DNA of 60,866 bases from Candidatus Moraniibacteriota bacterium (GTDB lineage Bacteria; Patescibacteriota; Minisyncoccia; Moranbacterales; GCA-2747515), in the NCBI GenBank assembly GCA_027031495.1, contig JALVQA010000020.1, positions 1 to 60,866 of the forward strand, written 5' to 3'. The notes beneath the pieces are model-generated. The model was not told the origin of the DNA, did not search any database, and worked only from the letters and a program-made list of their open reading frames with translations. The translations under genes and the position numbers were made by a program. Positions 1 to 20,446 of this stretch are shown here, one piece after another. Position 1 is the first letter of the stretch, and each line of letters begins with the position of its first letter.

Positions 1-88
1 TCCATACTTTCATACAATACCGTTAAACAGTTTCCAGTATACCATAATGTCCTGTATAATAGAGGTGTTATTTCCTAAGAAAAAACCC

Positions 89-1096
89 ATGACACAACTC
101 ACAGATATTGCGCGGCAGATGGTTGCCTCCGGCAAGGGGATTCTGGCCGCCGACGAGAGTCCGGCAAGCGCCGGCAAGCGCCTGGCCGCCGTCGGGATGG
201 ACAATACGCCGGAGAACCGCCGTGCCTATCGCGACCTTTTCTTGAACGCAGACGGCATTGGGCAGTACCTCTCCGGTGTGATTCTACACGATGAGACGCT
301 GCGCCAGGACGCCCTGGACGGCACACCGTTTCTGACACTGCTTGCCGACAACGGCATCCTGCCGGGCATCAAGGTGGACGAGGGATTGACGCCCTTTCCC
401 GGCTTTGACGGCGAGGAGCTCACGCGCGGACTGGATACACTGCCCGAGCGCTGCGCAGACTATGCCGCGATGGGCGCACGGTTCACCAAGTGGCGCAATG
501 TTATTCACATCGGCGCGGATTTGCCGACGCCGGAGCTTGTGCACACCAATGCTATTACACTCGCACGCTACGCGCGCATCGTCCAAGATGCCGGCATGGT
601 GCCGATGCTGGAGCCGGAGGTGTTGCTCACTGGCGACCACTCACTGTCACGCGCCGAAGAGGTCACGCGCGATGTGCTTGCAACCGTTTTCTACCAGTGC
701 ACGCGCTATCGCGTGGATCTCTCGGCGGTTATTCTGAAAACCAGCATGGTCGTGCCGGGTGATGCGTCCGGCGAGGTGATGGATCACGATGCCGTGGCAC
801 TCTCCACACTACGCGTGCTGCGCGACACTGTGCCACCGGAGGTGCCGGGGGTCGTCTTCCTCTCCGGCGGACAGAGTGCCGAGGACGCCTGCCGCAACCT
901 TGCTGCCATCAACCGCGCGGCTCAAGCAGAAGGCGGCGCGCCGTGGCCGCTGACATTCTCCTTTGCCCGCGCACTGCAAGGACCGGCGCTTGCCGTCTGG
1001 CGCGGCGACGACGAAAAGGTCGCGGAGGGGCGCGAAACCTTCCTCACCACCCTCCGGCGCAACACCGCCGCACTCGCCGGTAAGGACTGCGCATAA
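89..1096 (+). CDS. fba: Fructose-bisphosphate aldolase, class I
   Basis: GILAADES, GIKVD, FTKWR, PMLEPEV, FLSGGQ and TFSFARALQ motifs of class I FBA. ATG at 89 preferred over the track start at 47. Confidence 0.95.
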   Translation: MTQLTDIARQMVASGKGILAADESPASAGKRLAAVGMDNTPENRRAYRDLFLNADGIGQYLSGVILHDETLRQDALDGTPFLTLLADNGILPGIKVDEGLTPFPGFDGEELTRGLDTLPERCADYAAMGARFTKWRNVIHIGADLPTPELVHTNAITLARYARIVQDAGMVPMLEPEVLLTGDHSLSRAEEVTRDVLATVFYQCTRYRVDLSAVILKTSMVVPGDASGEVMDHDAVALSTLRVLRDTVPPEVPGVVFLSGGQSAEDACRNLAAINRAAQAEGGAPWPLTFSFARALQGPALAVWRGDDEKVAEGRETFLTTLRRNTAALAGKDCA

Positions 1097-1200: not shown

Positions 1201-2358
1201 CTAATTATCCCGCATGTCACGGTCACGCACCACGCGTGCAAAATCCTCAAAGTGTTCCACGGTGTGTTGCCGGCCCGTCAATGGGTCTGTGTAGTACATT
1301 TTTATGTGCGGCACACCGCTGTCAATAACAAGCTCATAGAACGACTCCGGAAATACGCGACTTTTCTTTGTGCCTGTAAGTGAGTAGTATCGCACACCGT
1401 TCTTCTCCTCATACCGCGCCACCTCCAGGTGTCCGTTGATAAATGCCTCTACATTGTATTGCTCCAGAATCGCGCGCAGCTCCGGCGCATTTGTGACAGA
1501 GCGTTTCGGGCGCGTGCGCGCATCTTCAAATTTCTTGATTTTTTTTCTCAAGGGCGGTGCGCTGTGCAGCACTCGTTGTACGGTCACGTTGTGCTTGCAA
1601 CTGCGCGATAATGCTCTCTACATCTGCCGATGCGCCCTGCGCAACAGCTTTGTCAAACGCTCCCTGGTGCATGATGACATAGGTGCGCTTGTCCGTATCA
1701 AGCACCGCTCGCAACCATGCGAGCGTATCAGGATGAACGTGCCCGGGAATATGTCGCTTGCCACCCGGCACAACCTCCCTCCCATCCGGGTAGTAGTTCG
1801 CATCCACAAACACGAGGCGGTAGTCACCGATGTCAATCACATAGTCAAGCGCCTCAAGGCCCAGCGCGTCTTTAAACTGCGCTTTGGTCACGCTGCGCAA
1901 TTCATGGTTACCAATCGCCCAATACACCGGCACGTTGTTTTTCTCCAGTTCTGCACGCACAAGGCGCAGCCCCCACATACCGACGTAGTCCTCGTCATTC
2001 GTTCCTTCAATCACGTCTCCAACATGGATGATGATTTCCGGCGAAATGCCCGCATGTTCTCATGAAACAACGCCAACGGGTGCGCGTCCTTGCTTGAACC
2101 CAGATAGCGCTCCGCTTCCGGGCGCTTGTCAGCACGCACGACGCGATTGGGGTGCACCTGCGTATCGGTGATAACCCCGATCTTCAGCACCTGCTGTGTT
2201 GACACCTTGCGCTCGTACAGTGGGATAAATGTTGTTGTTGGAAACCAATCCCATTTGTGTACATATGCAGGTGTATCGTATGTCACCCAGTATTTGTGCA
2301 CATAAAATATGCCGACACTACATAGAATAACGATGCAAATACTTATAAACTTTTTCAT
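1201..2358 (-). pseudogene. Calcineurin-like metallophosphoesterase with N-terminal membrane anchor, split by two frameshifts (or assembly errors); ~385 aa when joined
   Basis: Motifs ITDTQVH (2011-2358), VGDVIE/GNHE/MHQ (1526-2014) and NGHLE (1201-1587) fall in order across three track ORFs. Frames join by +1 at ~2044-2046 and -1 at the T8 run 1539-1546. Confidence 0.8.
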
Positions 2359-2412: not shown

Positions 2413-4254
2413 CTACAAGAGTTCTTGAATACGTTTAATAATTTTCTTTTGACGCGCAGCATTTCCCGAAGACTCCGCTTCACTCAATGTAGCGATCAGG
2501 CGTGCACGCTCTTCTTTTGTCCACAATGCAATCATACGTGCACACATGTCTTCAACTTCTTTTGCAAGAGCCTCCGCATCAGATGTTATTATGATACCCG
2601 TTGTCGCCGCACGATGTGAACGAAGCACTTTTTCAAGCACGTGGCGCGTACTCTCATCATCCACCACAGAGAGAACTTGCGCAAAAGAGGTCGCACCATC
2701 CATATATGCCATAATAAGAGCATGGAGCGCCTTCTTTTGTTCTAAGAGCGGGAGAGGAAAACTGTATGACGCGAGCACTCTCAATGCGTCATCTGATTGC
2801 GCAGCAAGCGAGAGAAGATTGTCCAACAAAATGTCACTTTGAGCAACTTCCACGTTCTGATTAGTGCCACTCTCTTGTTGTATGGTTGCCTCACGCTGAA
2901 TATCGCCTCCATAATCACGTTCTGCCTGCAATCGTTCTAATTCTTCCGTAACTGTCGCGGGAGAAGTTTGTGTACGCTGCGCAAGTTGCTCCACCCAATA
3001 CTCCTTGTCAACGTGTGATGCATGTGCATTGATAAGCGGTGCTATTGTGCGAATAACAGCGTGCCTACCATCCGGCGTTGCCACATTGTGTGTAGCAAGA
3101 GCGCGGTCAAGAAAAAACGCCACAGCATCACGTGAATGCTTTATAAGTTCGGTAAGATGCGCCGGATTATTCAACGCAATATCAGCAGCATCTTTTGCCA
3201 TTTCCCCATCAGTCATAACAACTCTTACACGTAAGCCAACGGAAACGCAAAGTGCCGTACTTTTAAACGCCGCTTTGCGACCGGCATCATCATTATCAAA
3301 AAAGAGAATAACTTGTGGCGCATAGCGACGTATGATGCGCGCATGATTCTCTGTAAGAGCAGTACCGCTCACAGCAACTGTCTCACGAATGCCGGCTTGA
3401 TGCATTGCAATAACATCAAGGTTGCCCTCAACAACCACTGTGCGACCCGTATCTTTCATTGCCTGTTTTGCATGTGCAATACCGTAAAGAATAGCGCTCT
3501 TGTGATAAACAGGTGACTCTGTTGTATTGATGTACTTTGCCTGTTTTCTGCCATCTTTATCATTTTCATCGTCTGGCAAAATTCGCGCAGAAAATCCGAC
3601 AACACGTCCAAGAGGATCAGTAATCGGAAACATGATACGACCACGAAAACGGTCATAGTAATCGTTAATACTATCACCATGCGTACCGTCTTTTTGAATA
3701 ATAAGACCAGCTGCAGCAATGTCAGCAAGTGTGTATTTGCGTCCATGTAAAAAATCGCGAATATGGTGCCAACCGTGTGGCGCAAAGCCAAGGCGAAACT
3801 CAGCAATTGACATCTCACTGATGCCGCGATCCGTAAGATAGGGACGCGCTTTGTGTCTACCGATGCCGTCTACAAGTTGTTTCTGGTAAAACTTTGTCGC
3901 AAGCTCAAGGATATCGTAAAGAAGTTTTTTTTGATCTATTGATGTGTTAGCATTTGCATCAGTATGCTGGCGCGTAAGCTCTACGCCGGCACGCTCTGCA
4001 AGCGCAACAAGAGCATCACGAAATGTCATACCCTCTTGTTCCATGACAAAACTAAACACATCACCACCCTTACCGCACCCAAAACAATGCCACAGTTGTC
4101 GCTCCTCGGACACCGTAAACGACGGCGTGCGCTCCTTGTGAAACGGGCACAGCCCCTTCCACTGCCCCGCGCCGGCACGCTCAAGCCGGACGTAGTCCCC
4201 CACCACATCCACAAGATTGAGCCGCGATTTTACTTCTTCTACATCATTGTTCAT
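2413..4254 (-). CDS. dnaG: DNA primase
   Basis: CPFH..E.TPSF...CFGC zinc finger, DRFRGRIMFPI, KYINT, TOPRIM EG.LD and FDND.AG motifs. Confidence 0.97.
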   Translation of the reverse strand: MNNDVEEVKSRLNLVDVVGDYVRLERAGAGQWKGLCPFHKERTPSFTVSEERQLWHCFGCGKGGDVFSFVMEQEGMTFRDALVALAERAGVELTRQHTDANANTSIDQKKLLYDILELATKFYQKQLVDGIGRHKARPYLTDRGISEMSIAEFRLGFAPHGWHHIRDFLHGRKYTLADIAAAGLIIQKDGTHGDSINDYYDRFRGRIMFPITDPLGRVVGFSARILPDDENDKDGRKQAKYINTTESPVYHKSAILYGIAHAKQAMKDTGRTVVVEGNLDVIAMHQAGIRETVAVSGTALTENHARIIRRYAPQVILFFDNDDAGRKAAFKSTALCVSVGLRVRVVMTDGEMAKDAADIALNNPAHLTELIKHSRDAVAFFLDRALATHNVATPDGRHAVIRTIAPLINAHASHVDKEYWVEQLAQRTQTSPATVTEELERLQAERDYGGDIQREATIQQESGTNQNVEVAQSDILLDNLLSLAAQSDDALRVLASYSFPLPLLEQKKALHALIMAYMDGATSFAQVLSVVDDESTRHVLEKVLRSHRAATTGIIITSDAEALAKEVEDMCARMIALWTKEERARLIATLSEAESSGNAARQKKIIKRIQELL

Positions 4255-4297
4255 ACTTCCATACTAGCGCATGAAGGCACAAGCACGCAACAGAACA

Positions 4298-4322
4298 AAA
4301 ACCCTCCGGGGAAGAGGGTTTT
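4298..4322. terminator. Hairpin/intrinsic terminator at the left island boundary
   Basis: aaaaccctc-cggggaa-gagggtttt, perfect 9-bp stem. Confidence 0.65.
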
Positions 4323-4325
4323 ATG

Positions 4326-4430
4326 TCGCAATTACTGAACGTCGCTCGAACTTTCTTTGAGCAATAATCTGCGTCCTGGCGGGTGCAGAACCTGTCCAGT
4401 GGCAGCATCCGCCTTGCGGTGAGCAAAGCA
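4326..4430 (+). repeat. 105-bp repeat, copy A (inverted relative to 14079-14183)
   Basis: Hand alignment with the reverse complement of 14079-14183: 85/105 identical, no gaps. Confidence 0.9.
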
Positions 4431-4725
4431 TCCTGATACCCTCGTCATAGAGTACTAAATTACAAAGAGTGAAGCTACGATAACCATGTCATCGTAGCAA
4501 CTTTCACGAAATCGTCTAGCGATCTGACGAGCGTCATCAAAAGATCGAGATCCTGCTCCACAATATAGTGTCTTGGTCGGACACTTCCCGAAGCATTTTA
4601 ATTTGCCTTTGGTGCGATGCGCCGAGACATCCAGAGTATTTTCTTGTCATTAGAAAACCATCCTTTCAGTTAATTTGGTGTTGCATGACTCAGAGAGCAC
4701 GAAGAACTTTGCCTGAAATCTGTCA

Positions 4726-4749
4726 AAAAGTCAAACGTTTTTGACTTTT
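4726..4749 (-). terminator. Probable terminator of the island operon
   Basis: aaaagtcaaa-cgtt-tttgactttt, 10-bp stem 9 nt after the stop at 4758. Confidence 0.6.
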
Positions 4750-4757
4750 CATAACGC

Positions 4758-5231
4758 TTACGTCATTTTATTCTCAATTTTATACTTTGTTACCTTTGAT
4801 GCATTTGGATGCGACTTAACAGCGTTTAACACCTCCGGCTCACTCGTCAATTTTACTAAACGGTCTAATACATCGCTTGGAGTGTTCGGATTATGGGCAA
4901 TAATCATACGTATATAATCCGATGCTCCCTCCAATGCTCGACGCATTGAATTTTCGGGCACATTTGGATTACAAAATGCAAGCACTCTGACATTAAAATT
5001 TTCGTCCATTGAAAGAATATTGAGAATAAATGGATCATTGCCTTCTGCAGCTTCTTTGCGTCTTTTTTCAAGCGGCCATTTTGCCACTTCGCGCTTTTTT
5101 TCTTCGAGTCCCTGGTCAATTTCAGTGCACATAGAATCAATATCTGCAAATATATCTTCAACATCAGGCAAGTCCTCAACTTCAGCGACGAGATTGTCTA
5201 TGTTGTCAAATTGTAATTCCAGATTTTTCAT
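4758..5231 (-). CDS. Hypothetical protein with LRV/HEAT-like helical repeats
   Basis: Repeated motifs AFCNPNVP, AHNPNTPSDVLDRL and KSHPNAS resemble leucine-rich-variant repeats. Starts 5 nt after the VWA gene stop. Confidence 0.7.
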   Translation of the reverse strand: MKNLELQFDNIDNLVAEVEDLPDVEDIFADIDSMCTEIDQGLEEKKREVAKWPLEKRRKEAAEGNDPFILNILSMDENFNVRVLAFCNPNVPENSMRRALEGASDYIRMIIAHNPNTPSDVLDRLVKLTSEPEVLNAVKSHPNASKVTKYKIENKMT

Positions 5232-5236
5232 AGTAT

Positions 5237-8200
5237 TTAATCAAATGTTTGTTCTATTAAATCTTCCAACTTTTGTGTAAATTTTCTCGATAGCATTGTT
5301 GGATCTTGTACTTTAAGCGAATTTTTGCCAAACTCTTTTTCAATAGTCTTCGCAGCTTGCGCTAAACCAATTCCTATAATCACTGCGTCTCGCTTATACT
5401 TTTGTATAAGATCATGTAGTGAATCCGAGCTACGCGCCAAACCATCTGTAATAAAAAAGGTAAAATTATAGGAACGATTAAATTTATCAGCGAATTTCAT
5501 TTGACTTTTTTGCGTCGCCCGTAACAGCTTAGTATCTTGCTGGTTCCGAACGGTGGGCCTAAGTAAAACTATCTTTTGTAAATCATCACCATATGCATCC
5601 TGGTCGAATTGCTTCAAAAACATGCAACCGCCTTCGGCATAGATGACGATTTCCAACGGTATTTTCAATTTTTTAGCTGTCTCAATTAAAGCTACGGCCA
5701 ACTTTTTTTCTTCTTCAATCATTCCACCTACCGAACCAGTATTATCGATAATCAACGACCACACGAATTGTGGCTTTTCAGGCGGACGTTTTCGCTCAAA
5801 AGACTCGGGTCGAATGACAGGTTTACGACCTTTCATGCCAATTACATTTCTCTGCCATCCACGTTCCAGTCTCGCTCCGCGTCGTTGATGTTTTGCGTAT
5901 GCATAATCCTTATCAAGTTCAAATTTATCAACGAAAAAATTAACAAGGTCGCCAATCAATTCTTTCTCTTCCTCCATGTATTTAATGTATAAGCGAAGAG
6001 CTCTGCCATCCAATCCTGACATCTCTTTATACATTGTTTCCATTCTTTTCTGATGCTGTGTTTTCAACTGCTCAAGTAATTGCAATTCTTTCTGTTGCGC
6101 CCTCGTTTCTTGCTCTGACAATTCTTCTCTCACTCTTCGCTCTTCTTCGCTGGTCACCTGTTTCATGATAAGATTTCCATCTTCATCGTGATCCAGGAAT
6201 TTGCTTTCAATGGAGTTTTCAAAAACGCTTAATTCATCCAAAAGTTTTGAATCTGGACACTTAAACACAACATCTGCACCTTCAGTGGTGTTACCAGCTC
6301 CGCCTTGATGTTGAAAGTCAAAATACTCCGCCAATCCACTAACGCCATTTTTTTCAAAACCCTCTCCGTCGGCCCGTCCGCCAGACAATTTTTCATTTAA
6401 TCTTTCTTCCATGCCTTCTAACATCTCTGACAATTCTCCCATAATATTGGAAAGTTCTCCAGACATGTCTTGTGGATTCGTACTAAATCCCAGCGCTTCT
6501 TGCATTTGTTGCAGTTCACCAATCATCTGCCGCATCGCTTTTTGTTCATCCTGCCTACCACTTTGTTCCATTGCTTGCTCCAAGTTTTGCTGCATCTGAT
6601 TTAGAAACTCTTGCATCTCTTGTGCGGACGGTATACCCTCGCTACCGCCTTCCGCGCCAGCCTGTCTTGCACTCACCTCGCCTGGTTCTTCAAAGCCTTC
6701 AGCTCCTTCTGCTGTCACATCTTCTCCTACACCCCCGCCCTGATCTCCGCTTTCAGCGGAGTCACCGTTCTTCACATCAGGTTCTTGATTCCTCTCGTCT
6801 TCTTCAGTTTTCTCACGATATTCCTGCGTTGACACCGGAATCTCAAAATCCATCGCCTCCCACAAATAGTAATATTTTTTATAATCATGCTGACCAAATT
6901 CGTTGAGACGTTGTAGATAAAGACCATGCATTATGGCATGGTCAACTGCACTCCAAATGACCGGCATACTTCGACGATAAAACTCGCCCCACTCAATCTC
7001 GCCTTTTTTGACAGGAATCGATTTTCCGCCATTTCCCCCTCTATACCAAAACCTTCCAAATGGTTTAGGTAAATTAAAGTTCACCAAAAAATCGCCAGTA
7101 GAGAGTCTCTCAATATAATTCTTTATTTCTTTTTAAAAAATCCTCACCGGCTTGCTTGCCATAAATAGAAAAAACAGGCAAATCGTAACCCCTTTCCTTG
7201 ATTTTTGAAATGATCTTGTCGGTAAAATTGGGATTTTTCTGTTGATAAGCATGCGCATGACACTACGATATACTTTACTCGTTTCCTGCGCAAAATGGCG
7301 TATTTTTTCTAGAATCTCCTTTTGTTCTTCCGTAAGCTTAGACTCATCAATACCATACTCTTTGATATTGTATATTATCGGCTCTTCTTCAAGATCCACT
7401 TCTTTTTCTGGCTCAGAAATATATTCGGCAATATCTTTAATTTGCTCAGCCTGTTGCTGCAAGGTTTCAAGCTGTTCGCTCAATACTCGGTCCTCTTTTA
7501 CCGCCTCTTGCAGATCTTTTATTTGCTCACGAAGCTGCTCGGCTTGCTCTGCAAACCTTTCCATTGCCTGCAGCTTTGGCATTTGTGGAGCAGGTTCTTT
7601 TCCAGCCTGTTCCTGCACTTTTTGAAACTGCTCTTGTATGCTTTGTAAATTATCGGCAAGTACTTGCTTGAATAAATTTTGCGCTTGCTCATACTCCTTT
7701 TGTTCAGCCGGACTTAATTCTTGACTTGGTAATTTTGAACGCCACTCACCTGCCTGTTTTTTTCCTATCCCCTCTTTCTTCTCCACGCCGTTTATATGCT
7801 TCGCGTAACTTCTCTCTCATTTCTTCGACTTGCCGGTGCATATTTTCTATTGCAGACAAGCCAGCAAACTCAGCACTATTTAGCTGTTTTGACTGTTTCA
7901 CTTCAGCCTTTGCTTCAGAAATTCCAGCAGACATAGCAAGTTGCGAAAACTTTGGCCATAAATGTTCGCGAATAAGATGAATTTGTTTTTGCGGCGTCGC
8001 CATTTTTATGGCTTGGTCAATTACTGATTTTGTCCGCGCATCAAAAAGATCTCGCACTTCAGCGCGAGCATTTGCAAGACCTTGTTTAAAATGTTCTTCG
8101 GGTATTATTCCGATCTGTGAAAGTGAATAGAGGAGAGTGAGCGTAACAGCTTGCTTATAGGGCGAGGCGTCTTTTACTTGTTCTGCCATGGCCGCGGTAT

Positions 8201-8693
8201 CAATTTCTTCCTGATACAACGCCTTAAAATTTTCTTCCGGGTATGCAGAATAAGCGTTCCGCATTTCAAAATAGTTAGCAGAAGCTTCATGTATTGCTTG
8301 GACAAGTGATGTAACCAATGTTGGTGTAATACTGCGCTCTTTACACCACTCACGCAGATCGTTCAACTCTTCTTCAATAGGATAATTAAGATTGCCGATT
8401 TCATGACGCAAACGAGCATTGACCAACTTCTGATCTTTTACAAGATAGTCGCGAGGATAGATAATTACATCCAGTACATTCTTAGCAGGATTTTCAGGAC
8501 TTGTCGCCACACCCCAATCTGACCCTGCAATAGCACGAATACGCACTTTACCTGCAAGACCTTTTCGTTCCAATTTGCGCACTAAGCCATGCGCCAGCAT
8601 GGGAATGATTTCATTTAGCTCTTGCTCGCGTCTTTCTATATCTACCGGTAGCGTTTCAGTGGGTGGTGAAATGTATTCTTTTCCCTCTCGCAT
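5237..8693 (-). CDS. Large VWA-domain protein (CobT/MoxR-partner type), ~1151 aa when three frameshifts are repaired
   Basis: C-terminal MIDAS (IIDNTGS ... FFITDG), N-terminal HEIGN segment, Q/E-rich coiled coils and a G/E/D-rich linker. Track ORFs 7746-8693, 7133-7786 and 5237-7087 join at T runs 7757-7763, ~7234-7246 and 7130-7134. Confidence 0.8.
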
Positions 8694-8704
8694 AACATAA
8701 TAAA

Positions 8705-10619
8705 TTATCTAATGCCTTCCGCTAAAATCATCATTATAGCATCACGATCGCTTTTGCCACGGCGATAGGTTTCAGTATGTGGCATATAGGTAACAGCAAC
8801 TGCGTATTGTGCGGCATTCCATCCGGGTTGATAGTCCGGCATCTTGGAAAGGTTGGCTTCCCAAAGTTTATTTTCTGAGTAAAACCGTGCCGCCTCAATA
8901 GAGCCGCGAAGCGAAATGTCCCGCTCCATTCGCAAATCACCGGCGCGCGTTTTATACGCTTTTACCACTTGGCGCGTACGATCCGCAATTGCTATGATGT
9001 TTTTCAAGTCCTTGATGGCTTTTATTTGTTCTGGATCAAGTGAAATGTACGCACCACGGCCGTTCACTACATAATCCCACGCTTTTTGAAAGTCTTGATC
9101 TGACAAATTAACTAAAGGATGAATGTACTCTTTCAAGATCAGTGCCTCATCAATAGTAAATCGCTCTTGGTTAGTCTCTGGATCAATTTCTCTGAACGGC
9201 GGATAGTCCAAAGTCATGATATTAGAACGGTCATCAATGGTTTCTGGCAAATCTTCCACGCCGTCGTATTCTGCCGGATTCATTAACGCGACAAAAACTG
9301 TGCCAGGAGCTGCTTTAATCACTTGATCGTTGAGAAAAATCGTCCGATCGCCGTCAGAGAGAGCGTTGAAAAATTTCGCCACCTCTGGCCGCAAAAGATT
9401 AACTTCATCCAATTCCAACACAGCGTTCGGTGTAGTAACAGCAGAAAGAATTCGGGTTGGAATTCTCACGACTTCGCCATCCTGTAATTCCACATCATAG
9501 GTCAGGTCGCGTTCTTCTTTATCTGGCGAGCACGCATAGCGGTACAGCGGGCGGTTCGTTTCAGCACAATAAAAGTCCACTAGTTTATTTTTTCCAGCGC
9601 CACGAGGACCAACAATAACGGTCATACCCTTGGCTGAAAGATGTTCCCACTCCGGCGCCTGCTTATTTTTTACAAGTTCTTCCAAGTACGCATTATTGCC
9701 TAGACCAAGCTGGCGATTAACTAATTGGGCAAACCAGGCAAATTTTTTCTCAAAAAACGGCGTAAGTTTAAAACGTGAATCGTGAGGCGGGATAAATTCT
9801 GCGAGGTTATCATCAAGCGAACGCAAAAAATTCTGAGTGCGAAGAATGTCTGCGGCACGCTCGACAAAATCATCCATATCTTCCAATGCAAATCTTTCTA
9901 AACCAACAACTTCTTTTATCCCACTAGGATCTGTAAACTTGGCGATTCTGTCGGCAAGTTTTCTTGCTTTAGTGTCATAATTCGAATCATCAGGATTGAG
10001 CCCTTCGTATTCTTGTTCAAGTTCAGCTAATCGTTTGCGGATCTCATTAAATGCGCGCACCTCTTGACGTCCCTCTAAAACGGTATCAATAGACTCAAGT
10101 CGTGTCCCACGATATTTTTCAGAAAATGTTAGCAGCTCTCCTGGCTTTGCAACAAGCGTTAATCCATTGGCATCTTTGAGAAAACGCACATCAGCAAATT
10201 TTTTTCCGCCAGAAACAAATACTTTGCCGGGAACAGCATTCCATTTTCTTGTTTCTGTGGGAGTTTCGCACACTGGAATATGCGTGCCACCAACTGTGAT
10301 ATAGCACCCTTCTTGCATTGCTGATGTGGAATTTTTTTCTTTTTCTTGTTCTGGTGTCGGTTCTATTGTTTTTATCTCCCCTCGCACTGCTTCTTGCTCC
10401 AATCGGTCTAGTTCTTCTAGTGAATCCTCTAATGCAGCAATTATCTCGTCACGAGACTTACCCTCCCCACTTCTCCATGTATCAGGCAAAAGCCGCGCTT
10501 TTTCCAAGGCACTTAACACTTTTTTCTCGCTTTTTTTCTATTACCTCCTGCGATACCGGTTCTTCTTTAGAAGTAACCCGATCGCGTTCAGGCCTTGGTT
10601 CTGGCATTTGTTCCCTCAT
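8705..10619 (-). CDS. MoxR/CobS-type AAA+ ATPase with long N-terminal extension, ~637 aa
   Basis: Walker A GPRGAGKN, Walker B LELDE, sensor-1 ALMNP, arginine finger IDDR. Probable true start ATG 10619, joined to track ORF 8705-10519 by removing one base from the run at 10520-10525. Confidence 0.88.
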
Positions 10620-10629
10620 AGTTATAAAT

Positions 10630-10989
10630 TTAATTATCAACCTTCTCTATTGCACGCTTTAATTTAATAAGTAAGTCATGTACAATTTTTGGGGCTTGTT
10701 CAGGGTAGTAAATAGTAAGCGTGCTTTTCTCTGACACAATGCGTGTGTGCCCTTGAAAACCAGGCACACCAAAAAGCCAGCGACCGACTGTATTGACGGC
10801 TATTTTTTTACCTTTCGCATCAACTCCTTCGGCTTTACAACTTATTTCTTCATTATACTGTGATAAACCTCTAGCTTTTTCGCGAACAAATACGCGCGCT
10901 GTTACGCCAAGCGGTTTTGGTGCTTGAATCACAATCTTTGCATGAAGCGGGATAAGTCTTTCTGGAAAGCTTTGCTTTTTTGTAGTCAT
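10630..10989 (-). CDS. Hypothetical protein (119 aa) in the island operon
   Basis: Intact ORF with 23-nt and 10-nt gaps to co-oriented neighbours; no recognisable motif. Confidence 0.75.
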   Translation of the reverse strand: MTTKKQSFPERLIPLHAKIVIQAPKPLGVTARVFVREKARGLSQYNEEISCKAEGVDAKGKKIAVNTVGRWLFGVPGFQGHTRIVSEKSTLTIYYPEQAPKIVHDLLIKLKRAIEKVDN

Positions 10990-11012
10990 AGTATTTGAAT
11001 CAAATTTAAAAA

Positions 11013-13717
11013 TTACCTTTGCGCCACGAGATGTGAGACGAGGAATGGGTATCTAGTTATTTCTTCAATGGTGAAGCCCGCATCCAATGTTTTCAGTACT
11101 ATCTCAACATTATTACTGCGCTTGGCAATAGTCATGATCATTTCCAGTGTATCGAATTGATGCAAACCACGGCGATCTATCTCGTACTTTACATTGAGTG
11201 CATTTTGCAAGGGTATTTCTTTTTCGACTATGCGTAGCAGATTATTTATACCAAATTTTTTAGCGGCAATTTCGATAACTCTACCCGCAGTCCATCTTTG
11301 TGTAACTTTACTCCAACGCACAATATCGCTGACCGAATTTTCAAGATCAAGTTCCGTAAGTGCCTTGTGAATATCAAGAGCTTTTAAGATAGGAATATCT
11401 TCGTCATTTATTTGCTCAAGCTCTTCAGGAGAGAAAGTGTTAAGAGCGTCTGATAATTGATGCCATTCTTCATACCTAGCGAGCCTCTGCGTCCATGCAA
11501 GTGAGTTTGCAAATGAAGCATCTTGATTTTTGGCCACAAGGGCAGAGCGAACGACTTTGTAGTGTTCATATTGCTGGCCAGCATTATAAAGTTGTTCTAC
11601 TTGTTTAAACGGGAGACTATGGAGTGCAAAAATAAAATCATCCACATTCTCAACACCTTTGGCTATAGTTGCAATCTGATCAATCGACAACTTGTGACCA
11701 TGTGCTTTTGTGTTGTCTCGTATGGCAATTGCCATTGGCAAAGATACGTCGCGACTTAACAAGTTTCTTGTTTCTGCAAGACCAAAGGTACTAAGGGCAT
11801 CGTCCAGCCCTGCTATGTCGTGAGAGGCAATCTCGGCAATGACAGTATTGTCCAGATCATATCCTTGTTTTTTCGTAGCTTTTCTTGCTGCGGCCACGGA
11901 GCGTAAATATAAATCTTGGTCCATGAACCACTTAACATCGTCAAGCGAATATTCGCGCAACACGTCTGTCATTCCGCGGAAATCTTTCTCTGCCAACTCT
12001 TCAACCTCCTGCAAGGAAATTTCGTAGTTGGACAGGGAAACAATGTTGCCAACTTTCATCATTCTTTCCAGTTTCTCTTGCGCTTCCCAATCTTGATCCC
12101 GCGCTTCCTGCGCTAGTTTATGTACTACTCCGAGATCATCTCGCGTTGCTCCTCGCTTTCCAGCAATAATATCAGCAAGGGCATATTCAACAATTTGTTC
12201 ATCAGACATACCAAGTCGCATCATTTTATGCGACCTTTTGATTGTTCCGAACGGCGCATAGTTTATCCAATCAACAATTCCATCGAGTGGCTCACTGTCG
12301 TGATCTCCACCGCGATGATTGATTTGGAAATGCAAATCCAATGCTTTCTGCGCCAAGTTTTTGTGCTTTTCATATCGCTCCTTAACGACTTCTTGACGCT
12401 CTTTAAGATCGGAGAGTAGCTGTTCAACGGTTCTGTTCTGAAAATAATCTAACTTTTGCCGGTATTCTGCTTCCAGGTTAGCAATCTGCGTATCAAAACG
12501 TTGCTTGAGACTGGTAAGCCGGAACTCTCGCTCTTCGTCTGACAAATCTTTTTGTTCAATTTGTTTTTGCGCTTTTTCAAATTTCTGTTCAAGACGCTCT
12601 TTCTCGTGCGCAAACCAATTTACCTGCCACTTTTGCATAAAGTCATTCTCTCGCTCAAGTAAATCTTGTCTTTCATGTTCATCGCCTTCTGTTAATATTT
12701 TTAACATTCCATATAAGCGTCTTCTTTCTTTTTCGTATTTATTCGGTCCTGATTTTCCAATAAAACGTTCAATGTTTCGTAGGTTGACACCACTTATTTT
12801 CCGTCGCATTCCGCGGAGTTGATCTTTTATATGTTCGTCACCAAGACGCGCCCACGCAACAGCTTCTTCAATACCGGAAGCATACGGAGAATGAGGAGTG
12901 CGTCCGGGATCATTGTAATCCATTGCTTCTGTAAGCCACTCTGAAGCAAGCAAGACGGCCCTATGTTCAAGGTGTTCTTCTCCTGCCTGTTTTTCTTCTT
13001 TTGTTGCACGTTGTTCAATAAATTTCCGCGCTTCACCGTATAATTTACGCAAAAATGGATATCCGTATCCAATACTTCCATTAGGTCCGGGTTCGATGCC
13101 AGAATGGTACCCTTTCAAGAGCACCATATGCTCGGTGCTTAAATCTTCATCCTTGCATTTTCTTTTTGCGATTTTATACACACCCATTTCCGGTGTTCCG
13201 ATCATGGACGCAAAAAGTATATCTCGAAATAAGCCGCTACGAATTGTTTCTGGTGTCACATTACTTGCGTCAATCGGCTTCTCTTTTGTTACTTCCACAT
13301 ATTCGCCCCTTTGTTGGCTCCATTCTTCTGTTGTATATCGGCGGACAGCTTTACCCTGAATCAGTTTTTGATAAAAATTGAGCCGATCAACTAGATACTT
13401 TTTGCACCTTCGGTGTGAGCAGCTTCATTGAGAGCCTGTATGGCCTCCACTACATTCATCCGGCGCAAAAGCTCCAAGCGCTCAATGTCGTCTTTAGTAT
13501 TTTTGAAATTCTCTATCTTTTCCTTATCAATGCTGATTTTTTCACATCCAAGGTAGGAAACTAGCCTCTCAAAACGAGTAGCTCCCAGCCACTCCACATG
13601 ACCTTCAACTTCGATAGCTTTGCACCGCTCGCTTGAAGATTTATTACCCTCATCATTGCATTCCTGCATAATATGCTCTCGTGAGTTCATTGATTGTTCA
13701 AATCTTCTTTTGCTCAT
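11013..13717 (-). CDS. Large hypothetical protein (~901 aa) with coiled-coil centre and C-terminal ~55-aa helical repeats
   Basis: Track ORFs 13391-13717 and 11013-13298 become one open frame (…GAKKYLVDRLNFYQKLIQGK…EYVEVTKE…) if one base is added to the run at 13399-13403. Confidence 0.75.
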
Positions 13718-13747
13718 ATGCTCATAATGTTCATTATTTTCTTATCC

Positions 13748-13965
13748 TTATTTTAGCGAAAAGAGAGTAAAAGGCAACTCTTTGTTCTTTGTTTTATTAA
13801 ATCATCAACGCCAACATTCAACGTATTTGCGATTTTTCGCAAAGTATCAATGATTGGGTTGTCATGTGTGCCAGTTTCAATATTAAAAATGGTATTATTT
13901 GAAACATCCACCAACCAAGCCAGCTTTTTTGCAAACGTTTTACAGTTTTCGCCAGCGCTTCTTTA
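13748..13965 (-). pseudogene. Decayed XRE-family (HTH_3) transcriptional regulator
   Basis: Minus-strand translation gives EALAKTVKRL, then a frame change, then KLAWLVDVSNNTIFNIETGTHDNPIIDTLRKIANTLNVGVDDLIK. This is a typical Cro/C1 HTH lacking the usual GLSQ segment and a start codon. Confidence 0.7.
13750..13777 (-). promoter_or_regulatory. Candidate sigma70 promoter of the island operon
   Basis: TTGCCT-16 nt-TAAAAT ending ~32 nt upstream of ATG 13717. Confidence 0.45.
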
Positions 13966-14078
13966 AAAAACAATGAAATTCCACCGAAAAATCGGTCGAA
14001 GCCAGAAAGTAAACAGGCAAAAAGAAAGAAAAATTAAAAAAGAAAGAGATGTGCCAAAAAAATGAATGGAAAATTTTC

Positions 14079-14183
14079 TGCTTTGCTCGCCGTAAGGCGG
14101 ACGTCGTCGCTGGATGGGTTTTGCACCTGTCAGGGCGCGGATTGTCGCTCAAAGAGAATTCGAGCAGCGTTCAGTAATTGCGA
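14079..14183 (-). repeat. 105-bp repeat, copy B (inverted relative to 4326-4430)
   Basis: Hand alignment as for copy A; lies ~105 nt from the 3' end of tRNA-Pro. Confidence 0.9.
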
Positions 14184-14288
14184 TTATACGATACTTTCAG
14201 AGTTTTTGGGCGAGTCTGTTTACTCATTCGCCGCGCCATCGATGCGGAGCGAGCATCCTTCTCATCTCAAAAATCAAAAAATCCATTA

Positions 14289-14364
14289 TGGTCGGAGCAT
14301 CGGGATTCGAACCCGATCTAAATGGTCCCAAACCATTCGTGCTAGCCGTTGACACTATGCTCCG
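14289..14364 (-). tRNA. tRNA-Pro(TGG)
   Basis: CGGAGCA/TGCTCCG acceptor stem, anticodon loop ttTGGga, GGTTCGAATCC T-arm, encoded CCA. Confidence 0.95.
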
Positions 14365-14438: not shown

Positions 14439-14720
14439 TTATTTTACAGCATCTTTAAGAGCTTTACCAGCCGTAAACTTCGGCACGGTCATTGCAGGAA
14501 TGTTGATCTTCTCACCCGTCTTAGGATTTACACCCTGACGTGCTGCACGTGCAGATGTCTTAAATGCACCAAAGCCAGTGATTGTCACTTTATTGCCGCT
14601 TTGAAGTTGTGTTGTTACAACATCAACAAATGCATCAACTGCTGCCTCAGCGTCTTTTTTGGAAAGACCTGTTTTTTCTGCAATTGCTGCAACAAGGTCC
14701 GCTTTTGTTACATTTTTCAT
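14439..14720 (-). CDS. hup: DNA-binding protein HU
   Basis: TKADLV…ITGFGAF…ARQGVNPKTGEKINIPA.TVPKFTAGKALKDAV. Start trimmed to MKNVTK. Confidence 0.95.
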   Translation of the reverse strand: MKNVTKADLVAAIAEKTGLSKKDAEAAVDAFVDVVTTQLQSGNKVTITGFGAFKTSARAARQGVNPKTGEKINIPAMTVPKFTAGKALKDAVK

Positions 14721-14876
14721 AATGTCACAATCCTCTCTAGTTATTATTTTATTTATATCCCCTACAGAGTATAGTCTATACGTTTTTTGCTTTATATGCA
14801 AGTGTTTATGTACTTATATCAGTATATTTTCTATCATACACACAAAAAGCACTGCACACCACAACTCAAAGCTCAT

Positions 14877-16397
14877 TTATTTTGCATATTCTACACTGCG
14901 CTTTTCACGCACGACATTTACTTTAATTTCACCAGGATACGTCAAATCAGACTCAATCTGTCGCGCAACATCATGCGCTAACTTCATCGCACCAAGGTCA
15001 TCAACCTCATCCGGACGTACAAAGATACGCACTTCACGCCCCGCCTGGATTGCAAAACATTTATCAACATTCTCAAAAGAATTCACCAACTCTTCCAACT
15101 CTTCCATGCGCTTGATGTAATTTTCAACCGTATCTTTACGCGCACCTGGTCGCGCTGCACTGATTGCGTCCGCCGCTGTCACAAGATATGCTTCTGCTGA
15201 TGCATATGGATACTCTTCGTGGTGCGATTTCATAGCATCAATGACCTTTTCGTTTATGCCAAATTTTGTAAGAATTTTAATGCCAATATTCACATGTGTG
15301 CCCTGCACTTCATGAGAGAGCGCCTTGCCAATATCATGTAGGAGTCCCGCCATGCGCGCCACTTTCACATCAAGACCCATCTCTTGTGCAAGTGCGCCGG
15401 CAATATATGACACCTCCAAGGAGTGCAAGAGTACATTCTGCTTGTAACTTGTGCGATAACGTAATCGTCCAAGAATGTAAAGAAGCTTCGGATCAAGCCC
15501 ATGAACACCAGCCTCATAAGCAGCTGCCTCACCCGCTTCACGAATACGACTATCAATCTCCTCCTCAGCTTCAGCAAAAACTTCTTCAATCTTCGCAGGA
15601 TGAATACGTCCATCCTCAATCAATCGCTCAAGACATACGCGCGCCGTCTCCCGCCGAATGGGATCAAAAGCACTTAAAACAACACTGTTCGGTGTATCAT
15701 CAATAACCACTTCCACACCGGTTAACTGCTCAAAAACGCGAATGTTGCGCCCTTCTTTGCCAATAATTTTCCCCTTAATCTCTTCTGACGGTATTGTAAC
15801 CGTCGACGTTAACGCCTCAGCAGCATGTGAGCGCGAGTATTTTTGGATCACTTGTGCCATGAGCGCATTTGCTTTCTCACGCAAAACATCTTCCTCTTCC
15901 CTTATGACTTTTGCGATGCGCTCGGCATACTCATCACGGTATTGCTCTTCCGTTAACTGCATCAATACCGTCTTTGCCTGCTCCTGCGAAAGACCGGCAA
16001 TCTTTTCCAGGCGTGCCGTCGCTTCTTTGCGCGCTGCTTCTACTTTTTCTTTCGCTGTACGCACTTTATCAGCCGCTTGTTTGACAGCTTCACGCTCACG
16101 ATCAACTTCCTCCATACGCCGATCAAGAATACTCTCGCGCTTTTCTAAACGCTTCTGCATATCGCGCAACTGTGCCTCCTCATCACGCACTTCCTTCTGT
16201 GCTTCTTCGATAATTTTTAGCGCTTTATCTTTTGCGGCAATCTCACTTTCTTTTGCCTTTTTGCGCGCATTGTCAAGAATTTTTTGCGCCTTTGCCTCGG
16301 CTGTATTTACTGCATTTCTTGCAGTCATATAGCGCACACCATACCCAACACCAACGCCAATAACAAGCGCTACTGCTGTTATAATTTCCTGTCCCAT
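14877..16397 (-). CDS. rny: Ribonuclease Y
   Basis: N-terminal TM and coiled coil, KH domain (KGKIIGKEGRNIR), HD domain (LLHDIGK). Confidence 0.96.
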   Translation of the reverse strand: MGQEIITAVALVIGVGVGYGVRYMTARNAVNTAEAKAQKILDNARKKAKESEIAAKDKALKIIEEAQKEVRDEEAQLRDMQKRLEKRESILDRRMEEVDREREAVKQAADKVRTAKEKVEAARKEATARLEKIAGLSQEQAKTVLMQLTEEQYRDEYAERIAKVIREEEDVLREKANALMAQVIQKYSRSHAAEALTSTVTIPSEEIKGKIIGKEGRNIRVFEQLTGVEVVIDDTPNSVVLSAFDPIRRETARVCLERLIEDGRIHPAKIEEVFAEAEEEIDSRIREAGEAAAYEAGVHGLDPKLLYILGRLRYRTSYKQNVLLHSLEVSYIAGALAQEMGLDVKVARMAGLLHDIGKALSHEVQGTHVNIGIKILTKFGINEKVIDAMKSHHEEYPYASAEAYLVTAADAISAARPGARKDTVENYIKRMEELEELVNSFENVDKCFAIQAGREVRIFVRPDEVDDLGAMKLAHDVARQIESDLTYPGEIKVNVVREKRSVEYAK

Positions 16398-18994: not shown

Positions 18995-20446
18995 CTACGG
19001 GTTGACAAATATTGCATCATTTTGCTTCTCCTCAAGATTTGCAAAATCATCTTCGCCAATATGCAATTGATCGAGAACCCAAATATGACGTGCATTTGTA
19101 GGATCATATTTGCCGACCATAAAGCGGCGCACTTCCGGATCATTGCGCTTTACAAGGTACCATATACCAATGTTATTGTCCCTGTAAAAGAGATCTTTTG
19201 TAAAACACGCGCCAGGCGTTGCGCCTGTTGTACCACGAAATGTACGCATACACATATTCCATGCTCTATTCTGGGCGGTGGCATAATCTTCACCTTCCAT
19301 GAGAAAATAGTCTGTCATTATTGTAAATACATAACGAAAATCGCGCTTTTTACCATCCATGCCTAAGGCAAGTGAAATTGCAAGGTACGTATTAAAACCA
19401 GCAAAGTCGTGCATACCCTGCACTTTTTGTTGCTCATACATTGCAATACCTTCATCATCTTTGTAGCGATCCAGACCAATTGAAAGTATTTTAAGTACAC
19501 TGTGCGCGCCATTTTCTTTACGGCGCACATGCACACCAATCTCATGCGCTATAAGTCCTTGCAGTGTACGCAATGACTCTTTCCGCCGACCTTTTGGCAC
19601 GAGAACCTTACCATCGCTAATACTAATTGCAGTGCGCGTATCGTCAATAACAACGTCCCACCCCTCAATACCGTACGTTTTTAATGCTTCCGTAAACGTC
19701 GCAACAATTTCTTGATCTGTATATTCGCGATCATCATTGTATACTTCCATCTCACTCACTGATGGAATTTGGAATTTTTCATCTTTGTGCCGTAGCAAAA
19801 ACACGTTTGCTTCCACTGGACCTACACGCTTCCTTTTCTGTGGAAGAAGAGTAATATCATCCGCCAGCGAAAGATAATCTTTAAATTCATCACGCAATCT
19901 CCTCGCAGCTTCTTGTGCGATAATATTGTCATCATTGCGCATTGCTCTCTCAGTATCTACCAAGAGCTTTGCCAGCGTATAGTTAAATGTTTCCCGCTCC
20001 GGTCGTCCGTACACAAATGTGGAGTAGCGCACAAATTTCTTATCATCACCATTTTTAGCCGCTTGCAGCATTCTATTCTCTGCAATTTTCTCATTTACTT
20101 TCCATAAATACACTTTCCTAAGAACATCATTTTTTTCTTTTTTAATTTTTTCCTTAAGAGCAAGATACTGTTTTTCCACCGCTTGCGCATCAAAATCCTT
20201 CAGCCGTGGGTACGTCAGTTCTGGATTACGTACTACACCGGAAAGAAATGCATGCTTTGCCTTCTCACGCACACCTGCCTTCAAGAGCTTACCCTCTTGA
20301 AGAGTATCTTCGTCAAGACGATACTCACGCGTACCTACAAAGTAATTATATGCACTCAGTTGTTTTATTGACGAAAGATCACCGAACAATTCTTCATCAA
20401 GTGGCTTTTTTTGTTCATGTTGTAAACATCCTTCAAATTGATTCAT
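18995..20446 (-). CDS. DUF1704/MATCAP-family zinc peptidase (Tyr/Phe carboxypeptidase-like)
   Basis: AHEIGVH (HExxH) followed ~25 aa later by DEGIA, and C-terminal FTKDLFY..RFMVGK. Confidence 0.8.
   Translation of the reverse strand: MNQFEGCLQHEQKKPLDEELFGDLSSIKQLSAYNYFVGTREYRLDEDTLQEGKLLKAGVREKAKHAFLSGVVRNPELTYPRLKDFDAQAVEKQYLALKEKIKKEKNDVLRKVYLWKVNEKIAENRMLQAAKNGDDKKFVRYSTFVYGRPERETFNYTLAKLLVDTERAMRNDDNIIAQEAARRLRDEFKDYLSLADDITLLPQKRKRVGPVEANVFLLRHKDEKFQIPSVSEMEVYNDDREYTDQEIVATFTEALKTYGIEGWDVVIDDTRTAISISDGKVLVPKGRRKESLRTLQGLIAHEIGVHVRRKENGAHSVLKILSIGLDRYKDDEGIAMYEQQKVQGMHDFAGFNTYLAISLALGMDGKKRDFRYVFTIMTDYFLMEGEDYATAQNRAWNMCMRTFRGTTGATPGACFTKDLFYRDNNIGIWYLVKRNDPEVRRFMVGKYDPTNARHIWVLDQLHIGEDDFANLEEKQNDAIFVNP

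Follow-up and report, generated by a model that had tools for sequence, protein, structure and literature searches.

Introduction

Few AAA+ machines are as widespread, and as poorly understood, as the pairs formed by a MoxR-class AAA+ ATPase and a protein with a von Willebrand factor A (VWA) domain, and hardly any of these pairs has a known client protein. The locus described here encodes such a pair. It lies in a 60,866-nucleotide stretch of a Candidatus Moraniibacteriota genome (contig JALVQA010000020.1, hereafter the window), where five minus-strand genes, g1 to g5, form a cassette within an island of about 10 kb. On balance, this island probably carries one copy of a rare, mobile and undescribed MoxR-VWA cassette with tagged clients, and this copy was recently inactivated.

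The adaptor CbbO of the Rubisco activase has a C-terminal VWA domain whose MIDAS, an adhesion site dependent on a metal ion, holds the client, and the MIDAS domain of Rea1/Mdn1 (midasin) grips a conserved acidic residue in the ubiquitin-like (UBL) domains of its clients Rsa4 and Ytm1. In the NorQ-NorD complex, a finger of the VWA domain enters the NorQ pore, the C-terminus of NorD makes contact with NorQ, and the linker of NorD undergoes remodelling (PMC13036017). MoxR-vWA ternary conflict systems (VMAP, iSTAND, FtsH and beta-propeller types) have an N-terminal vWA domain, which is followed by effector domains (PMC7159879), and a MoxR-vWA module acts in threat sensing in Actinobacteria, in the Esr pathway (PMC13622651). 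Viral pairs comprise p618/p892 of the Acidianus two-tailed virus, a MoxR protein with a metallopeptidase-vWA protein in jumbo phages, and haloviral AAA/vWA pairs (PMC7824862, PMC7911831).

The Cassette across Genomes

The five genes of the window are separated by 23, 10, 11 and 5 nt (g1-g2, g2-g3, g3-g4 and g4-g5, respectively), and the sizes and spacings reported for them in the initial annotation were all reproduced at 4758-13717. The order g1-g2-g3-g4-g5 was found intact in 12 contigs fetched by exact protein and in 34 loci from named genomes. Loci and contigs compared in this way carry L-numbers below, with L001 as the main intact reference locus. Since this gene order recurs in more than 30 independent public contigs, the operon is not a product of chance, and its earlier description as an operon was borne out when the same order was sought elsewhere and found conserved across many classes of the candidate phyla radiation (CPR).

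Intact cassettes encode g1 of about 950 aa, g2 of 118 aa, g3 of about 650 aa, g4 of about 1,140 aa and g5 of 157 aa. More than 110 cluster-level homologues of g3 were collected (50-81% identity, nearly all about 650 aa long), and the sets obtained for g4 and g1 were similar. When genome contigs were scanned, a single ATPase sequence gave no match, and the loci were recovered with an alignment of the ATPase as the query.

Cassette hosts within the CPR were Zambryskibacteria, Magasanikbacteria, Paceibacteria, Parcubacteria, Peribacteria, Gracilibacteria, Falkowbacteria and many Saccharibacteria. Outside the CPR, Peptococcaceae (beside rpoC and fusA) and Synergistaceae carried a g3-g4-g5 trio together with a tail-bearing protein (see below) and no g1. 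The reduced system of Synergistaceae (L020/L048, 9124-15486) is made up of the ATPase, a VWA protein of 792 aa, a 192-aa protein with leucine-rich variant (LRV) repeats, and a convergent tail-bearing protein of 168 aa. It was also observed that this system adjoins genes of a molybdenum hydroxylase of the xanthine-dehydrogenase/CO-dehydrogenase type, divergently transcribed from the trio.

The g3 ATPase was found neither in any of 60 relatives nor in any of a further 400 genomes drawn from the whole phylum, and it is single-copy in this genome. Because it is missing from all these relatives and phylum genomes, the cassette is rare and mobile, and accessory rather than core.

Individual copies occupied different surroundings. 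One was located inside a conjugative element with VirB4, TrbL, TrbC, relaxase, coupling protein and serine recombinase genes, one between a phage-type integrase and tail genes, and one, on another contig, in a variable region of small accessory genes. The commonest context was between housekeeping genes. Among 150 non-redundant neighbour proteins scanned, most belonged to housekeeping families and three were resolvases, with defence-type neighbours (Csx3, methyltransferase, dCTPase, PDC-S01) occurring sporadically. In one clade of Saccharibacteria, the cassette was stable at one chromosomal site across many genomes.

A search of 2.9 million IMG/VR contigs gave no relative of the ATPase, and the sole match in 50,697 GenBank phage records was a weak one, of 25%, to a cobalt-chelatase gene; a phage origin of the cassette was dropped on these grounds. 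AAA_5 ATPases of haloarchaeal chromosomes and plasmids (L055-L089) were considered as members of the same system and rejected, as their loci contained no homologues of g1, g2, g4 or g5 and no tail. These haloarchaeal proteins showed 21-29% identity and shared the Walker A motif VGPRG[TSA]GKN, and several of their loci had an open reading frame (ORF) of 865-930 aa as the next gene.

A Shared C-Terminal Tail

The C-terminus of g1 homologues is a near-invariant stretch of about 22 residues, AGF[ST]xEE[IL]xx[FY]P[FY]L[IV]SxL. In the window, the g1 tail reads LDAGFTIEEITRYPFLVSHLVAQR and is encoded at 11016-11087 on the minus strand; when the entire 1.0-Mb genome was translated in six frames, one occurrence of the motif was found, in g1.

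Five proteins unrelated to g1 have only their last 25-35 residues in common with it. These were a 517-aa protein encoded by an extra gene in L005, a 189-aa protein in L007, the 168-aa protein beside the Synergistaceae trio (L020), and proteins of 634 aa (L047) and 639 aa (L050) encoded after the Peptococcaceae trios. In L019, identical last 24 residues were borne by two different proteins. At least one tail-bearing gene was present in every complete system examined, the consensus common to these proteins being AGF[ST]xEEIxxFPFLxSxL, and no Pfam domain was detected in the tail-bearing proteins.

Median identity to the L001 proteins was 29% for g1, 41% for g2, 59% for g3, 40% for g4 and 35% for g5. 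The fastest-evolving component is thus g1, whose tail is far better conserved than the rest of the protein.

Judged from these sequences, the tail is likely to be the address label by which the clients of the machine are marked. The client had been expected among the three genes without an assigned function, and g1, bearing the tail common to all systems, indeed has the appearance of one. Client addressing by a tail has not been described for any MoxR-VWA system.

Component Proteins

In g3, the AAA_5 domain was matched with E = 1e-13 (51.8 bits in the window copy and 57.7 bits in L001, Pfam cut-off 22). The family profile searched against the PDB matched only NorQ (4.8e-12 and 2.2e-7) and CbbQ (1e-5 and 1.3e-4). 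By sequence profile, g3 is a MoxR-class ATPase of the CbbQ/NorQ group, with NorQ/CbbQ as its closest relatives. The Walker B motif LELDE, the sensor-1 Asn (LMNP) and the arginine of DDR are invariant across the family. The N-terminal extension of about 300 aa is conserved, and no match to it was found. A PHROG for porphyrin biosynthesis was also matched by the ATPase.

From its N-terminus, g4 has a helical domain, an acidic/coiled-coil linker and a middle domain, followed by the VWA domain at the C-terminus. An AlphaFold2 model of L001 g4 had a mean predicted local distance difference test (pLDDT) score of 66.6, with confident domains, among them a C-terminal Rossmann-like alpha/beta domain at residues 940-1140. 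The top four Foldseek matches to this domain were NorD VWA chains in NorQ-NorD complexes (8e-6 to 8e-5), with further matches to other VWA domains and to Rea1/MDN1 MIDAS domains. By predicted fold, the VWA domain of g4 is therefore closest to NorD. In the alignment of the g4 family, the MIDAS residues (DxS/TxS, T, D) are invariant or nearly so, with D974, S978, T1073 and D1074 invariant, and the C-terminus ...QTFD is invariant or nearly so, including the terminal F-D.

The domain calls of the initial annotation were upheld. AAA_5 in g3 was confirmed, as was the VWA domain of g4, by fold and by Pfam matches in 14 of 25 homologues; in the window copy, however, Pfam did not detect the VWA domain, and the LRV match of g5 was weaker than in homologues.

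No matches were obtained for the N-terminal domain, the linker or the middle domain of g4, and the PDB profile search with g4 gave noise only. An HExxH motif was not found in g4 by sequence, the sole invariant His being H94 in RHEIGN, and no peptidase family was matched in the 25 homologues. Searches of Pfam, PHROGs and NCBIfam with g1, g2 and g4 likewise returned no matches.

An AlphaFold2 model of L001 g1 was all-alpha (pLDDT 79.8, predicted template modelling score 0.60), and showed five units, each of about 55 aa, besides a long helical hairpin. Fold searches against the PDB and the viral structure library BFVD gave nothing better than E = 0.07, the g1 profile against the PDB gave noise only, and a full HMMER scan of 1.84 billion representative proteins returned just 125 relatives. 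In addition, proteins of 1,300-2,300 aa (P0231, P0250, P0254, P0266, P0278, P0293, P0303 and others) share the conserved g1 core (residues ~250-560) and are devoid of the tail. At their C-termini, two different motifs recur instead, ...LISLE.I and ...NFNGYD..., and no Pfam domain was found in the five largest of these proteins.

For g2, 15 residues were invariant among 20 sequences; no match was found in Pfam, PHROG, NCBIfam or the PDB, and no relatives were found outside the cassette. The g5 protein matched LRV/LRV_2, with LRV_2 at 1.3e-4 in the L001 homologue, and its profile gave noise only against the PDB. Its acidic N-terminal helix (window ~5100-5231; L007 15317-15961) was also compared with Pup, which docks on a coiled coil of an AAA+ ATPase. 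This likeness was not significant (Pfam E = 0.035, PDB profile E = 0.15-0.4) and was rejected. A sixth gene, g6, located after g5, encodes 117 aa when intact (L001, L025, L026 and L054), and an intact 69-aa counterpart of the XRE-type gene is present 5' of g1 in L021.

The Island and Its Insertion Site

The coordinates of all mapped features are listed in Table 1. The island is flanked by the housekeeping genes dnaG, HU and RNase Y. The distance from the start of dnaG to tRNA-Pro is 10,031 bp here versus about 100 bp in G003, a genome of the same genus with an empty site. Because the site is empty in G003, the copy is the only one in the genome and the ATPase is missing from all sampled relatives and other members of the phylum, the roughly 10 kb at window 4260-14290 form an accessory island acquired horizontally, and the tRNA-linked island proposed earlier was thereby supported. 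The XRE remnant, the inverted repeat and the adjoining tRNA-Pro of that proposal were each located in the sequence.

Table 1. Positions of the cassette genes, their motifs and frame changes, and the surrounding features in the window.
Feature	Position	Strand	Description
g1	13717..11013	minus	~900 aa, helical repeat protein, putative client; one frameshift
g2	10989..10630	minus	119 aa, intact, conserved protein without fold assignment
g3	10619..8705	minus	~637 aa, AAA_5 (MoxR-class) ATPase; one frameshift
g4	8693..5237	minus	~1151 aa, adaptor with C-terminal VWA domain; three frameshifts
g5	5231..4758	minus	157 aa, intact; acidic N-terminal helix and LRV-type repeats
g6 remnant (sixth gene)	4431..4645	minus	tblastn 41% identity over 63 aa
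XRE-type helix-turn-helix gene remnant	13753..13960	minus	5' of g1; HTH_3 match 2.9e-6 on 53-aa fragment (13753-13914)
g3 Walker A	9587-9610		GPRGAGKN
g3 Walker B	9398-9421		LELDE
g3 sensor-1 N	9266-9286
g3 DDR	9221-9238
g4 VWA domain	~5240-5850		C-terminal
g4 MIDAS	5732-5746		DNTGS
g4 TDG	within 5441-5458
g1 frameshift	13409-13415		A5 run
g3 frameshift	10497-10519		A7/A6 runs
g4 frameshift	7758-7765		A7 run
g4 frameshift	~7250		A5 run
g4 frameshift	~7115		no homopolymer
Promoter-like site	13750..13777	minus	TTGCCT-16-TAAAAT before g1; consensus match only
Terminator-like hairpin	4298..4322	minus	left end of island, just upstream of dnaG; 10-bp stem, then T-run
Inverted repeat, left arm	4326..4430		105 nt
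Inverted repeat, right arm	14079..14183		105 nt
tRNA-Pro (UGG)	14289..14364	minus	ARAGORN and Rfam; right border of insertion, outside cassette
dnaG	2413-4254		housekeeping flank
HU	14439-14801		housekeeping flank
RNase Y	14877-16397		housekeeping flank

No recombinase or integrase was found among the ORFs examined in 4260-14290. Direct repeats of the att type or a duplicated tRNA 3' end were not found either, the longest direct repeat between the island ends being 10 nt.

The two arms of the inverted repeat are 81% complementary and have sharp ends, and all 20 differences between them are transitions. The 105-nt element occurs in the genome in just these two copies, of which the left one truncates the 3' end of g6. 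It was absent from the empty site of G003 and from all other cassette loci, and a role of the repeat as general ends of the mobile element was rejected for this reason. The element could be a structured RNA gene or represent the ends of a separate small element.

The promoter and the terminator of the initial annotation are present as sites, but sites of this kind were no less frequent in shuffled sequence, and neither consensus was enriched at the locus.

Two groups of genes in the vicinity were also recorded. A class-I fructose-bisphosphate aldolase gene (window 47-1096) lies in a stretch of 58% G+C, versus about 44% elsewhere, and in Saccharibacteria loci (L017) the cassette likewise has a class-I aldolase gene within a few genes of it, which is probably a coincidence. 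Two RimK-type ATP-grasp genes are located a few kb from the cassette at window 18995-22207, and one is near the cassette in the Magasanikbacteria contig L005 (11047-11958); a link to the cassette is not established.

State of the Window Copy

With intact homologues as tblastn queries, exactly five frame changes were mapped: one in g1, one in g3 and three in g4. The XRE gene is frameshifted, has lost its start and carries an internal deletion, and g6 has a frameshift in addition to its 3' truncation. Since the XRE gene is broken and g6 is truncated, decay affects the whole island. With its frames joined, the window g4 kept 79 of 80 invariant residues, so the inactivation would be recent. The cassette in this genome is most likely a recently inactivated, pseudogenised remnant whose operon is non-functional, as far as its sequence indicates.

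The frame changes had earlier been treated as slips to be repaired. They are real in the sequence, and four of the five do lie in A5-A7 runs, but the broken XRE gene and the truncated g6 speak for decay. It is unlikely that they are homopolymer errors of sequencing or assembly and that the organism itself possesses an unbroken, working operon. Such errors would agree with the location in homopolymers, with the well-preserved invariant residues of g4 and with the finding that none of the five genes contains a nonsense substitution. However, the loss of sequence and start in the XRE gene and the truncation of g6 are not simple homopolymer slips, and the frame change at ~7115 is outside any homopolymer. 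Moreover, 126 A/T runs of six or more are present in the window outside the island versus 34 inside it, yet one other broken gene was seen there; random homopolymer errors therefore fail to explain the clustering. The ORFs outside the island tile without visible breaks, and those checked were intact, distinct genes.

The sole broken gene seen outside the island encodes a calcineurin-like metallophosphoesterase (1231-2346, minus strand), in which comparison with the orthologue of G003, intact at 381 aa, revealed two frame changes. One split gene was also observed in other copies from metagenome-assembled genomes (MAGs): g1 in L017 and L037, g4 in L039, and g3 in L043. The breaks in L017, L037 and L043 are 1-nt indels, located in a T5/T6 run in L017 and L043. 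These split genes could reflect recurrent inactivation or assembly errors. For practical purposes, the copy in this genome is to be annotated as pseudogenes.

Proposed Mechanism and Role

Starting from the gene families, synteny, mobility and tail exclusivity observed above, we infer which component would bind the tail and what a remodelled client might do. The conserved core consists of the NorQ/CbbQ-like ATPase g3, the NorD-like adaptor g4 and the LRV protein g5, usually with g2, and the variable part of one or two tail-bearing proteins, the putative clients, here g1. By analogy with NorQ-NorD, g3 would form a hexamer, on which the VWA domain of g4 and its conserved C-terminus ...QTFD would dock. 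The remainder of g4, together with g5 and g2, would hold the client tail, in which the invariant pair of acidic residues could plausibly serve as the ligand of the MIDAS, on the model of Rea1 and UBL. Hydrolysis of ATP, relayed through the acidic/coiled-coil linker, would then alter the conformation or the assembly state of the client.

It is possible, though we would not call it probable, that the tail is a portable label by which any bearer becomes a substrate of the MoxR-VWA-LRV machine. The whole cassette would in that case serve ultra-small bacteria, and some Bacillota and Synergistota, as a mobile tag-and-remodel conflict system, with swappable, fast-evolving clients that are held inactive or activated by ATP-driven remodelling.

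Three points weigh against the interpretation of the locus as a tagged-client machine. No known domain or fold could be recognised in g1, in g2 or in any other tail-bearing protein. Throughout the g3 family, Walker A reads GPRGxGKN, with an invariant Asn where Ser or Thr is usual, so that ATPase activity of g3 is presumed. The contacts proposed among the cassette proteins are putative and drawn from those of NorQ-NorD.

As for the role, a conflict-type function linked to mobile elements would be the most likely class. The initial annotation had gone further and inferred an anti-phage or host-interaction machine; in a defence system of this kind, the fast-evolving tail-tagged protein would sense an invader or act as an effector, switched on by the MoxR-VWA pair in the manner put forward for MoxR-vWA ternary conflict systems. 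Rarity, patchiness and horizontal mobility would suit such a role, as would the insertion beside a tRNA gene, the repeated inactivation in MAGs, which costly accessory systems tend to show, and the occasional neighbours Csx3, methyltransferase, dCTPase, Ntox44 and DUF4143. A conserved core with variable, interchangeable partners, combined with mobility and patchiness, also fits the conflict-system criteria of Kaur et al. (PMC7159879), and Actinobacteria use MoxR-vWA modules for threat sensing (Esr, PMC13622651). However, no PADLOC model matched any component, and neither components nor clients contained a nuclease, protease, TIR, pore-forming or other effector domain. Most of the 150 neighbour families were housekeeping ones, with defence-type genes sporadic and no consistent defence-island context, and the Saccharibacteria clade mentioned above retains the cassette at one chromosomal site across many genomes. 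Because of the lack of a PADLOC match, the mostly housekeeping neighbours and the lack of a recognisable effector domain, a defence role of the cassette is possible but unsupported, and we regard this reading as doubtful. Service to the mobile elements themselves, either as an assembly chaperone for a large helical structure, in the way that p618/p892 builds the tails of the Acidianus two-tailed virus, or as a module by which conjugative elements and prophages establish themselves or counter defence, appears improbable. It would be in line with the copy that, in an integrative conjugative element, has mating-pore genes on one side and the genes for the relaxase and the coupling protein on the other, with the copy between prophage integrase and tail genes, with the known pairs of archaeal viruses and jumbo phages (PMC7824862, PMC7911831), and with the long, all-helical repeat of g1, as expected of a scaffold or filament subunit. 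Housekeeping genes, on the other hand, surround most copies, and neither transfer nor virion genes occur within 10 kb of these; the viral structure library yielded no fold match for g1; and the ATPase was not found in IMG/VR, with the weak cobalt-chelatase match as its only trace among GenBank phages.

A further reading, in which g3 and g4 insert a metal cofactor into a metabolic enzyme or otherwise assist its maturation, like NorQ-NorD, CoxD-CoxE and CbbQ-CbbO, is very improbable. The closest sequence and fold relatives of the pair are indeed NorQ/CbbQ and NorD, and the Synergistaceae trio adjoins molybdenum hydroxylase genes; these are, however, divergent from the trio. The absence of a metabolic client gene from the window, noted in the initial annotation, was confirmed for the window genes examined, and no nitric oxide reductase (NOR), Rubisco or CO dehydrogenase gene or chelatase substrate gene was found in the related loci apart from these Synergistaceae neighbours. 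The constant companions of the pair are instead the tail-bearing proteins, which resemble no enzyme.

The tagged-client reading would make client recognition directly testable if true, as the genome itself appears to name the clients by a near-invariant tail exclusive to these operons. The cassette also belongs to the small number of large accessory modules passing from one CPR lineage to another and into other phyla, and its role bears on how minimal, host-dependent CPR bacteria handle conflict or their hosts.

Relation to Known MoxR-VWA Systems

No system model of PADLOC-DB 2.0 was matched by the cassette, the best E values of 1e-3 or weaker falling on coiled-coil stretches, and no description of the cassette or of the tail was found in the literature searched. 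The earlier statement that the operon belongs to no described system is consistent with both results.

The closest likeness is to NorQ-NorD (PDB 9qh4, 9qhd; PMC13036017, PMC9976466). NorQ is the best solved relative of g3; g4 has its VWA domain with the MIDAS at the C-terminus, behind a long linker, with NorD VWA bound to NorQ as the best fold match; and the conserved extreme C-terminus of g4 is comparable to that of NorD, which touches NorQ. In contrast, g3 has an additional N-terminal region of about 300 aa and the GKN Walker A, and g4 is about twice as long as NorD, with acidic low-complexity and coiled-coil stretches. The cassette contains no NOR client, adds g1, g2, g5 and the client tail-tag, and is mobile, rare and located outside metabolic operons. 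CbbQ-CbbO (PDB 5c3c, 6l1q) belongs to the same CbbQ/NorQ group of MoxR ATPases, but no Rubisco or carboxysome genes accompany the cassette, whose putative clients are co-encoded and have no recognised fold.

With the MoxR-vWA conflict systems and Esr, the cassette shares a MoxR-vWA pair with conserved and variable partners, of which the variable one diversifies fast. In g4, by contrast, the vWA domain comes last, and no effector domain follows it. Neither WxhapG nor PsWRxa, the two motifs at the MoxR N-terminus, is matched in g3, where the consensus has LLPxxWxS followed by WEAVPGK, in reversed order and with unfitting residue classes. There is no alpha+beta VMAP-C third component, g1 being all-alpha apart from one hairpin. 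The hosts are ultra-small CPR bacteria rather than multicellular lineages, and kinase and FHA genes are absent. A VMAP-type system was rejected because of differences in three respects: where the VWA domain lies, which motifs the MoxR N-terminus carries, and what the third component is.

The viral pairs are likewise MoxR-vWA pairs on mobile elements, thought to remodel or assemble a large helical protein, but no detectable sequence relative of g3 was found in IMG/VR or among GenBank phages. Unlike the jumbo-phage pair, g4 has no HExxH (zincin) N-terminal to the vWA domain and no peptidase match in its 25 homologues.

Rea1/Mdn1 resembles the cassette in its AAA_5 modules, acidic linker and C-terminal MIDAS domain, which the g4 VWA model matches. 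The tail contains an invariant acidic pair, comparable to the acidic residue gripped by the Rea1 MIDAS, and might be bound by the MIDAS of g4 in a similar manner. Rea1, however, is a eukaryotic protein that unites six AAA modules in one polypeptide of about 5,000 aa, whereas motor and adaptor are separate in the cassette and the label would be a short C-terminal peptide in place of a UBL domain. The cassette is so far undescribed, and it is set apart from known MoxR-VWA systems by its tail-tagged clients and by its LRV and 118-aa partners.

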